This document shows positions 12,300-17,040 of a DNA stretch of 27,635 bases, in pieces; within the stretch, counting starts at the first letter, position 1; each line of letters starts with the position of its first letter. This DNA is from Candidatus Parcubacteria bacterium (GTDB taxonomy: Bacteria; Patescibacteriota; Minisyncoccia; JAHIHE01; JAGLIN01): the NCBI GenBank assembly GCA_023142975.1, contig JAGLIN010000051.1, positions 1 through 27,635 on the forward strand, written 5' to 3'. Under the pieces are notes generated by a model that saw only the letters and a program-made list of their open reading frames with translations, searched no databases and was not told the DNA's origin. The translations under genes and the position numbers were made by a program.

Positions 12300-12479
12300 T
12301 TATTTACAATCGCAAAACTGACAATTACTATCCGTTTTTGTTTTGCCGAATTTCTTGTCATATCTATCTGATAATTCCCGTTGATCCTTATTTGCTTTTC
12401 TAATCGCGCCTCTCATTATTCTTTCCTGCTCTTTTTCCGGCAACTCAAATAAATTTTTCTTATTATTCTTTATCTTCAT
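12300..12479 (-). CDS. Unannotated small basic protein (59 aa), probable partner/antitoxin of the zeta toxin
   Basis: ATGA overlap with the toxin stop. MKIKNNKKNLFELPEKEQERIMRGAIRKANKDQRELSDRYDKKFGKTKTDSNCQFCDCK*. Confidence 0.65.
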   Translation of the reverse strand: MKIKNNKKNLFELPEKEQERIMRGAIRKANKDQRELSDRYDKKFGKTKTDSNCQFCDCK

Positions 12480-13192
12480 ATTTCATCTTTTAATAAATCA
12501 TATAATCTTTTCTCATTGTAATTATCTTTAAGATATTTGTCAACGCGCGCAACTTTTGGATAAAATTTCTCAATATTATTACTATAATTTTTAATCACTA
12601 AATAAACTTTTACTTCATCTTTAAAAATAGATTTGATTTTTATAACATTTTCTTTAGCATTAAAAAATGACTCAACAAATACTTTTTTTGGTACTTTTCT
12701 ACCTTCTAATTTTTCCCGCTTTTTTGTAAATTCCCACGCAATCAATGGATCTTGATAAATATAATATATTCCAACAGATCTATTTCTGCTAAGTGATCTT
12801 TCAATGTTCCTATAAACAATTTCAAACTTAGCAAAAGTGCCGTCAATCATCGCATTTAATTTGTTTTTCAAAACATAATTATACAATTTATGCACGCCTA
12901 TAGACGCGGCGTTTTGCACTACATCAGAATTAGCGCCATTATATTGCGGTATCATTTCTCTTATTTCGTCAGCATCAATTCTGACTATAGGATTCGCAGA
13001 ACTTTCCGCCATTTTAATTAACGCTTTAGAATATTCCGTCTTTCCCGCCCCTGGCGAACCTGCCATAAATAATGAAACGGGGTTTTCGTTTGGTTGATAA
13101 ATTTTACTGCTAGCAAATTTTTCAAACAATAAATCTTTATTTTCTTTTATAAACTTTTTTGCTTTCTCGCTGTCTTTTGATGATTTATTCAT
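12476..13192 (-). CDS. Zeta toxin-family P-loop kinase
   Basis: Walker A GSPGAGKT, IDADEIRE, IDGT and REKLEGRKVP. Confidence 0.85.
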   Translation of the reverse strand: MNKSSKDSEKAKKFIKENKDLLFEKFASSKIYQPNENPVSLFMAGSPGAGKTEYSKALIKMAESSANPIVRIDADEIREMIPQYNGANSDVVQNAASIGVHKLYNYVLKNKLNAMIDGTFAKFEIVYRNIERSLSRNRSVGIYYIYQDPLIAWEFTKKREKLEGRKVPKKVFVESFFNAKENVIKIKSIFKDEVKVYLVIKNYSNNIEKFYPKVARVDKYLKDNYNEKRLYDLLKDEI

Positions 13193-14036: not shown

Positions 14037-15755
14037 TCACATATCCATCTCCGCATTTTTCTCATACATCTTACACATCTCCTCAGTGTATCCACCCTCT
14101 CTTTCCCAACACTCCTTCGCTTGTTTTTTAAAAAACTTGCTTTGATATTTTACAATCTCCTCGTAATTTTCATTTAAAACCGACAGCGCTTTTCTTCTTG
14201 AAAAATTAAACGACTGCCAGTTTTCGCTCTGTTTTTTCTCAGCGTTTTCTAATTTTTCTTTAAAAGAAACTGGTTCATTTTCCCAAGAACCCATATAACC
14301 ATCATAATACCCGCTTCCAAAAAGAAAATCGCAACGATAATACAAATCTTTCGCTATTTCTATTTTTATTTTTTCATCTATATTATTCATCTGAAAAATT
14401 TTCATCGTTTCAGGAAGAGCGTCAATAGACAAGCGAGACAAATAAAATGAATCCAACTCTTTCTCTTGAGCCAATCTTTCTATATTTTTTCTGGCAATAA
14501 AAGCGTCGGGATTTATTAAATTTATTCCCGTCCAAAATGTAATTGTTAAACAAAATATCATTAGTAATAAAACTGGCTCTTTCTTTTCCTGAAATATTTT
14601 TTTATAGAGAAAAATCAGAAACACGGAAAAAATCCAGAGCAGAAAAACAAAAACTAAGAATCTAAAAAAAGTCAAACCGTAGCCATCAACATAAACAGCC
14701 ATTCGCGTCCAAGCAGAATAGATAATTACAGACATTTCCAAAATGAGAGCGGCGCTTAAGATTTTAAATATTTTCTTTTCTTTTAAACTCTTTCTAAAGC
14801 TTGCTTTATCCAATCCGTAAAGCAAGAAAAAAGAAATAATTGAAGTAGCAATTAATTCGTAAAAACCTTTTTTCGCGTATTGCGAATAAGTGATATATTC
14901 TTCAATCCCCCAAACATAATCTTTTCCGCCAAAGAGATAAAAAAATTGAATAGCAATAAAAGACAAAAATAATAATTCAATTAAAATCAAGACTGTTGAC
15001 GATTCAATAAAGCCCAGTGATTTATTTTCAGATGTTGGTTCAGGTCTCTGACCTGAACCCTGTATTTCTGATATTGGTTCAGAACTCTGATCTAAACCTT
15101 CTATAATCTTGGAAAAAACGCCGAGAAAAATATAAGTAAAAACTAAGATCATCAGCGCTCTCAAAATTATTTCCAGATTAAAATTAAAATTAAATACTTT
15201 TCCGACATACGCTTGAAATACCAAATCCGCTGAAGATAAAAGCCAGCAGAAAATAATTAAAAAAGGCGCCGCAATAACAACTCCTTTAATCACACTTCTA
15301 AATTTTTTGGAACCGATTTTATTTTTCTCTGGAATTGCATTTTTACATTTTGTAATAAATCGCCCCGCCCCGCGAAAAGATTTTAGGAAAAAAGACGGTG
15401 GAGAAATAATATATTTTAAGAAATTAAAATCCAAAATACTTTTATTCAGGAATAAACTGAAAAAGAAAAAGAGTAAATATAAACTGCCCCAAAAATTAAA
15501 GAACGCTAAAAACAAACTTGCTCTCAAAAACACTCCCGCGGAAAACAAAAGAACAGTAGCTAAAATAAAAATTTGAATTTTGCTTATTTTTATCTCATGT
15601 TTTTTTATTAAAATCAAAGAAAAAATTATTATAAATAAATTAAACGCGAAAAAAGAAACTCCGATTGATTTCTGGTAAAATAAATAATCAGTTAACACTC
15701 CCAGAATTAAAGCAAGGGAGATTATGAGATAGAGATTTTGTTTTTTTGTAATCAT
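14037..15755 (-). CDS. DUF4153/DUF4173-family polytopic membrane protein
   Basis: About 13 TM helices, LLSSADLVF, YSQYAKKGFYEL, RMAVYVDGYGLT and INPDAFIARKNI. Confidence 0.8.
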   Translation of the reverse strand: MITKKQNLYLIISLALILGVLTDYLFYQKSIGVSFFAFNLFIIIFSLILIKKHEIKISKIQIFILATVLLFSAGVFLRASLFLAFFNFWGSLYLLFFFFSLFLNKSILDFNFLKYIISPPSFFLKSFRGAGRFITKCKNAIPEKNKIGSKKFRSVIKGVVIAAPFLIIFCWLLSSADLVFQAYVGKVFNFNFNLEIILRALMILVFTYIFLGVFSKIIEGLDQSSEPISEIQGSGQRPEPTSENKSLGFIESSTVLILIELLFLSFIAIQFFYLFGGKDYVWGIEEYITYSQYAKKGFYELIATSIISFFLLYGLDKASFRKSLKEKKIFKILSAALILEMSVIIYSAWTRMAVYVDGYGLTFFRFLVFVFLLWIFSVFLIFLYKKIFQEKKEPVLLLMIFCLTITFWTGINLINPDAFIARKNIERLAQEKELDSFYLSRLSIDALPETMKIFQMNNIDEKIKIEIAKDLYYRCDFLFGSGYYDGYMGSWENEPVSFKEKLENAEKKQSENWQSFNFSRRKALSVLNENYEEIVKYQSKFFKKQAKECWEREGGYTEEMCKMYEKNAEMDM

Positions 15756-15816
15756 ATATCTTTTATTTAATTTTATTATTTACAATGAAACTTATTATAA
15801 AATTTAATTGTAGCAA

Positions 15817-15842
15817 TAGATTCCTTCCTCCGCAGGAATGAC
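15817..15842. repeat. Second copy of the REP-like repeat at 14..40
   Basis: TAGATTCCTTCCTCCGCAGGAATGAC is in the same orientation and shows a compensatory C-G to T-A stem change. Confidence 0.7.
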
Positions 15843-15859
15843 AGAATACTGTCTGATTT

Positions 15860-15892
15860 AAAAAAACTAAACCTTACACAAAGATTTAGTTT
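15860..15892 (-). terminator. Intrinsic terminator after rpsG
   Basis: Minus strand AAACUAAAUCUU-UGUGU-AAGGUUUAGUUU followed by more U. Confidence 0.65.
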
Positions 15893-15923
15893 CTGAAAAT
15901 CATTCTATAACTTAAAGACAGAT

Positions 15924-16394
15924 TTATCTCGCGAAATGCGCGAATGCTCGATTTGCTTCTGCCATTTTTTGGACATCTTCTCTTTTCTTCATTGCCACGC
16001 CAGCGCCTTTAGTAATTTCAATAAATTCATCCGCTAACTTTTCCGCCATTGGTTTTCCTTTTTTACTTTTTGCCGCGCTGATAATCCAGCGAAACGCCAG
16101 TTGGATTCTTCTGTCGCCACGAACCTCTATCGGAACTTGATAATTCGCGCCACCGACTCTCTTTGATTTCACTTCCAAAATTGGGCTGACTTTATTAACC
16201 GCGCTGTCAAAAACTTCCAATGGATCTTTTTTAGTTTTCTCTTTGACAATATCAAAAGATTTATAGACAACTCTCGTCGCTACGCTTTTTTTACCTTCAT
16301 CCATAATGTAATTCACGAATCTAGAAACCAGCGCGTTATTATATTTAAAATCAAGCTTAATCCCCCGATCCATTTTCTTTTTTCTTCTGCCCAT
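15924..16394 (-). CDS. rpsG: 30S ribosomal protein S7
   Basis: GKKSVA, PILEVKSKRVGGANYQVP, LAFRWI and AEANRAFAHF. Confidence 0.98.
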   Translation of the reverse strand: MGRRKKKMDRGIKLDFKYNNALVSRFVNYIMDEGKKSVATRVVYKSFDIVKEKTKKDPLEVFDSAVNKVSPILEVKSKRVGGANYQVPIEVRGDRRIQLAFRWIISAAKSKKGKPMAEKLADEFIEITKGAGVAMKKREDVQKMAEANRAFAHFAR

Positions 16395-16623: not shown

Positions 16624-17040
16624 CTACTTCGGTCTTTTCGTTCCATATTTGCTTCTCTCCTGTTTTCTTCCTTCAACTCCGCCAGCGTCCAAAACACCGC
16701 GAACGATGTGATAACGAACACCAGGCAAATCTTTTACTCTCCCGCCGCGAATCATTACAACAGAGTGTTCTTGTAAAGTATGCCCGATTCCTGGAATATA
16801 CGCTGTCACTTCACTTCCATTTGTAAGTTTTACTCTCGCAATTTTACGCAAAGCCGAATTTGGTTTTGTCGGTGTCATTGTTCCAACCTTAACACAAACT
16901 CCCCTTTTAAAAGGATTGCCTCTTTTGGCTGTTTTCGGTTTATTTTTAAGATAATTAAAATTCCGCGCAAGAGCCGGCGTCTTTGATTTCTTCACGGTTT
17001 TTTTTCTTGACTTTCTAACTAATTGTTGAATAGTTGGCAT
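16624..17040 (-). CDS. rpsL: 30S ribosomal protein S12
   Basis: [22 protein letters not shown] and [13 protein letters not shown]. Confidence 0.99.

Follow-up and report, generated by a model that had tools for sequence, protein, structure and literature searches.

Lysine 42 of ribosomal protein S12 (uS12; K42 in the mature E. coli protein, K43 when the initiator methionine is counted) has been studied as closely as almost any ribosomal residue. Replacing it by threonine is a textbook streptomycin-resistance mutation that is costly and makes decoding hyper-accurate. In the structure of the Thermus 30S subunit with streptomycin, K42 hydrogen-bonds the drug and bridges to A913 (PMC2916820). With arginine in its place the salt bridge is kept but streptomycin is no longer contacted, and the ribosome is resistant without being restrictive; with threonine or alanine both contacts are lost, and the ribosome is resistant (highly so for K42T) and strongly error-restrictive (PMC2916820).

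Resistance-type residues at S12 positions also occur naturally. A 2026 preprint that screened 15,721 mainly cultured species found such residues in the rpsL of 7.6% of them, nearly all being 88R or 43R (43 being residue 42 of the mature protein), with only seven species carrying others; it makes no mention of Patescibacteria (10.64898/2026.06.09.731231). In Sphingomonadales, Wolbachia and Planctomycetia entire clades normally carry these residues, which are phylogenetically clustered (10.64898/2026.06.09.731231). The locus described here is alike in both respects, and most relatives of its genome likewise carry 43R; it differs in that the rare and costly 43T has been fixed, with most natural cases of this residue falling in Patescibacteria. 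Natural resistance-type S12 is already known, and what is new is the concentration of its rare form, Thr-42, in Patescibacteria.

The streptomycin tolerance of the Saccharibacteria member TM7x (Nanosynbacter lyticus) is ascribed to its 16S rRNA and not to S12. TM7x is a streptomycin-tolerant CPR bacterium for whose enrichment streptomycin was used (PMC8651080); the genus studied here is also a CPR bacterium and is predicted to be insensitive. Our literature searches on rpsL variants in CPR or Saccharibacteria yielded either no paper or papers on these bacteria, among which the CPR resistome paper does not treat rpsL (PMC8651080).

The gene under study lies on a contig of 27,635 nucleotides (contig C103, hereafter the window) from the metagenome-assembled genome (MAG) of an ultra-small, uncultured Patescibacteria bacterium, which comprises 955 kb in 155 contigs and is 95% complete.

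Threonine at the K42 position of uS12

The sequence-only reading of this DNA had placed a threonine, encoded by ACA at residue 58, at the K42 streptomycin-resistance position of S12. The protein is a bacterial uS12, scoring 205 bits against TIGR00981 (cut-off, 113 bits) over residues 1-138, i.e. its full length. In the PDB search, uS12 chains matched at 1e-58, the best match being B. subtilis uS12 (3.4e-58), with which the S12 motif around Thr58 aligned column for column. Residues 43-138 of the query aligned with residues 27-122 of the E. coli chain 4ybb_AL, so that the offset to E. coli numbering is 16 and residue 58 corresponds to residue 42 of the mature E. coli protein. Both the residue and its codon are therefore as first read (Table 1), and we found a single copy of rpsL in the genome. 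The gene stands in a str-operon context, with rpsG directly downstream.

Table 1. Coordinates of rpsL, its streptomycin-related sites and its partner gene in the window
Feature	Position	Strand	Basis
rpsL, ribosomal protein uS12, 138 aa, with Firmicutes/CPR-type N-terminal insertion	16624..17040	-	TIGR00981, 2.6e-61
Codon ACA = Thr58, equivalent of E. coli K42 (K43 counting the initiator Met)	16867..16869	-	Translation and PDB alignment
Codon AAA = Lys59, equivalent of E. coli K43 (mature numbering), kept	16864..16866	-	Matched string ACACCGACAAAACCAAAT; translation
Second streptomycin/accuracy loop, residues 98-107; K103 (= K87) and P106 (= P90) wild type	16720..16749	-	Translation
rpsG, ribosomal protein uS7, downstream partner of rpsL in a truncated str operon	15924..16394	-	PF00177, 2.4e-57

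K42T (K43T) mutants that are streptomycin-resistant and error-restrictive have been described in E. coli, Salmonella and mycobacteria, and this S12 shares with them the protein family, the aligned residue and the replacement itself; the threonine codon is likewise one base change from AAA, and both decoding loops of S12 are otherwise wild type. In contrast with those laboratory or clinical mutants, threonine is here the wild-type residue of a genus and has been kept through ~9% nucleotide divergence. The background also differs in that RsmG was not found, the 16S genes of the order have a U505-A526 pair in place of G505-C526, and S12 includes the CPR-type insertion.

The first reading had left three possibilities side by side, natural resistance or altered decoding accuracy in the lineage, or a base-call error, and had called for a comparison of S12 across related MAGs. 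In G002, the one further species of this genus with an rpsL gene, the codon is likewise ACA. Its rpsL differs from that of the window genome (G000) at 38 of 417 nucleotides (~9%), with 34 codons changed synonymously and one non-synonymously. We also searched a collection of 5.8 billion proteins for close variants, and the five closest (P0001-P0005; 97-99% identical, on ~20 contigs from JGI, ENA and other archives) all had threonine, as did a cluster of 23 members at 92% identity (P0011). The nearest lysine-bearing forms were 96% identical to the window S12.

An artefact of sequencing, assembly or binning, with AAA as the true codon, would be consistent with ACA being one base away from AAA and with the contamination estimate of the MAG (4.9%). 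However, the same codon is found in an independently assembled sister species whose rpsL has diverged by 9%, and threonine recurs in the five further close protein variants, which come from ~20 contigs in several archives. Because a threonine codon recurs both in the divergent sister gene and in independent assemblies, we exclude a base-call error and regard an artefact of any of these kinds as having a negligible probability. Thr-42 is a real natural allele and a fixed trait of the genus.

Residue 42 within the order, the class and beyond

We next analyzed the state of this site among relatives by matching the S12 motif with a degenerate DNA pattern, which shows the codon in each genome. Across the 30 genomes of the order, 10 had lysine, 15 had arginine and 5 had threonine at S12-42. 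Family f1, to which the window genome belongs, includes 2 threonine genomes (the window's genus), 5 with lysine and 15 with arginine, the arginine codons being mainly AGA but also CGA and CGT. Family f3 has threonine in all three of its species, which belong to two genera and use the synonymous codons ACG, ACA and ACA; families f2 and f4 have lysine. In a class sample of 401 genomes, the S12 motif was recovered in 362. Outside the order, only 8 of ~340 class genomes had a non-lysine codon with a second base other than A (7 arginine, 1 threonine), such that the non-lysine share is ~2% in the rest of the class compared to 20 of 30 inside the order; related genomes are not independent, and these counts are given without formal statistics. 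Lys-42 is thus unusually changeable in this order. One class genome (G348) yielded two S12 motifs, one with lysine and one with arginine, on contigs C51 and C103 of that assembly, which could reflect either a mixed bin or two copies of rpsL.

In a tree built from S7, S4, S5 and S12 with site 42 masked, the threonine genus had support of 1.0 and was grouped, with support of 0.997, as the sister of a mainly arginine clade; a second arginine clade lay elsewhere in family f1. One lysine genome (G021) was nested within an arginine genus, an apparent arginine-to-lysine reversal in genus g13, and the tree requires at least five changes at the site among the 30 genomes. Since AAA, AGA and ACA are mutually one step apart, a lysine-to-threonine change and an arginine-to-threonine change leading to this genus are indistinguishable.

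The repeated and independent appearance of threonine and arginine in the order is what would be expected if aminoglycosides produced by neighboring or host bacteria had directly selected for these residues. K42T and K42R are classical high-level resistance changes (PMC2916820; 10.64898/2026.06.09.731231), and the enrichment of TM7x under streptomycin (PMC8651080) also fits such selection. However, cost-free arginine or 88R usually prevails under selection (10.64898/2026.06.09.731231), yet threonine has persisted here, and the switching between lysine, arginine and threonine, with its apparent reversal in g13, resembles a loosely constrained site. We therefore consider selection by aminoglycosides an unlikely explanation for the fixation of threonine.

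To place the allele on a global scale, we scanned a threonine-specific pattern over one genome per species for 185,579 species; the scan sees only S12 genes with a TP.KPNS[A]LRK context. It matched 34 loci, of which 33 were real S12 genes on translation. The remaining locus (L078, from the cyanobacterium Baaleninema simplex PCC 7105, NZ_KB235959.1) lies in a 43-aa frame that is not S12 and was removed from the count. This locus has an exact 11-residue motif-coding stretch, which may be left over from an rpsL gene or may match by rare chance.

With threonine in merely 33 real S12 genes among the 185,579 species genomes, the description of the site as nearly invariant holds. Twenty-four of the 33 genes belong to Patescibacteria, as judged by record title, S12 type and genome size (~1 Mb). 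Two MAGs with the titles Pseudomonadales and Gammaproteobacteria are counted here because they have a CPR-type S12 and genomes of ~1 Mb. The others come from Poribacteria (4), Chloroflexota (3), Bacilli (1) and Victivallales (1). Patescibacteria make up ~5% of all species, and it is against this share that the enrichment in CPR is read. Four Saccharibacteria-titled records, which lie outside the window's order, are among the Thr-42 species, and none of the 33 cases is a cultured organism. By sequence, the cases fall into ~20 lineages, ~15 of them CPR. Natural Thr-42 is thus very rare, with most cases in Patescibacteria. Neither this concentration nor the polymorphism of the whole order for lysine, arginine and threonine was foreseen in the sequence-only reading.

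The ribosomal background of Thr-42

RsmG (GidB) is the methyltransferase that forms m7G527, and its loss leads to low-level streptomycin resistance in model bacteria. Using TIGR00138, we detected RsmG in none of the 401 genomes sampled from the class, although all 10 bacterial controls tested positive. The weak RsmG match in the window genome proved to be a PCMT-type methyltransferase. With RsmG missing class-wide, these bacteria presumably leave G527 without its methyl group. The Thr-42 species outside the CPR do carry RsmG. Because RsmG is missing from all sampled class genomes whatever the allele at site 42, and is present in the non-CPR threonine species, its loss is a background to the allele and not its cause.

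The earlier reading had also proposed looking for compensatory changes, and in S4, S5 and 16S rRNA nothing survived comparison with a proper baseline. No 16S rRNA of the window genome or genus was found among the assembled contigs, and 16S genes were present in 13 relatives within the order, 12 of them alignable over the streptomycin pocket. At positions 13, 526-527, 912-915 and 1490-1491 there was no difference between the lysine, arginine and threonine relatives of the order.

The pair G505-C526 is near-universal, but all 16S genes of the order have U505-A526 in its place, a compensated pair of the 530-loop pseudoknot. We rejected this replacement as an allele-linked change, as it is order-wide whatever the allele. 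Family f2 has C506-G525 as well. The order-wide change at 505/526 alters the site of primer 515F, and several of the 16S genes (G025, G026 and G031; 16S loci of the order, L031-L047) contain long insertions.

Within S12 itself, no column other than site 42 was unique to the threonine genus. The PGQHG motif of S4, whose glutamine is Q40 in E. coli, is well conserved in model bacteria. This glutamine is glutamic acid in the window's genus and methionine or alanine in family f3; it is kept in 23 of 24 lysine or arginine genomes of the order and replaced in all of the order's threonine genomes. However, this association does not stand as compensation for Thr-42 when wider baselines are considered. 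In the class, 164 of 401 genomes (at least 41%) already lack the glutamine, nearly all of them with Lys-42 and the outgroup included; worldwide, the residue is other than glutamine in merely 15 of the 32 threonine species with S4; and only 49 of the 138 nearest S4 cluster representatives have glutamine (~64% do not). The glutamine-to-glutamic acid change in the window's genus is the sole S4 change that coincides with threonine, and it is a single event. More generally, the motif is highly variable in the class, with valine, methionine, isoleucine, alanine, glutamic acid or lysine in place of glutamine (e.g. G000:C77:6861-6935). In S5, residue 119 is arginine in both threonine clades of the order, yet the site is hypervariable and only two events are involved, so we did not retain it as a candidate.

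These results bear on whether threonine was kept for its effect on decoding, in that a hyper-accurate, slow ribosome might suit an episymbiont that grows slowly and makes few proteins, with resistance as a by-product. Such a role would agree with the strongly error-restrictive nature of K42T in model bacteria (PMC2916820), with the persistence of threonine through speciation, and with three quarters of natural Thr-42 species being small-genome Patescibacteria. In contrast, most CPR species, including close relatives that share the same lifestyle, have lysine or the non-restrictive arginine, and no co-varying change was found in S4, S5 or rRNA. We judge retention of threonine for its decoding effect to be quite improbable.

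Expected phenotype and fixation of the allele

Threonine at this decoding-center lysine of uS12 would remove both contacts made by K42, and the resulting ribosome would be expected no longer to bind streptomycin, giving intrinsic, high-level insensitivity. Because K42T acts uniformly in the species tested, intrinsic streptomycin insensitivity of the genus is likely by analogy. Such ribosomes may also decode more slowly and more accurately, so hyper-accurate decoding in the genus is possible on the same comparison.

The switching between lysine, arginine and threonine throughout the order argues that Patescibacteria ribosomes tolerate changes at site 42, and it is most likely through this tolerance that threonine would have become fixed. 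The background of fixation would be a ribosome without RsmG methylation of G527 and with a re-paired 530-loop pseudoknot (U505-A526). We consider such a tolerant background a better explanation for fixation than recent antibiotic selection, which is the less likely cause. Taken together, the genus has a lineage-fixed natural allele of the uS12 K42T type, and we think it probable that this allele confers insensitivity to streptomycin and was fixed via a tolerant ribosome background.

A broader possibility, which we put forward only tentatively and regard as somewhat doubtful, is that Patescibacteria ribosomes are built to tolerate or even favor the restrictive K42T, reflecting a group-wide difference in decoding-center closure. 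If this were true, the ~15 CPR lineages and the three-quarters share of natural cases would represent recurrent fixation marking a group-wide trait, which might be connected with the absence of m7G527 throughout the class and with the re-paired 530-loop pseudoknot, and these bacteria would provide natural hyper-accurate ribosomes.

That threonine is normal in one genus and in a separate family of the order, and is found mostly in Patescibacteria, suggests that how tightly this residue is constrained varies with the ribosome around it. These uncultured bacteria could probably be enriched with streptomycin, the agent already used in the case of TM7x, and CPR resistome surveys that are limited to acquired genes will miss target-site insensitivity of this kind.

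The surroundings of rpsL also have unusual features. After rpsL and rpsG, a 572-aa DUF4153 membrane protein occurs in place of fusA and tuf (this part of the operon, rpsG included, spans window 14037-16394, minus strand). In the whole 95%-complete MAG, no full-length EF-G passed the TIGR00484 cut-off, and the EF-G matches were partial only, consisting of residues 4-176 on contig C80 and a 575-aa LepA/BipA-like frame on contig C155. The window also encodes a zeta-toxin family kinase (PF06414, 4.6e-39) at 12476-13192 on the minus strand, a few genes downstream from rpsL and rpsG.
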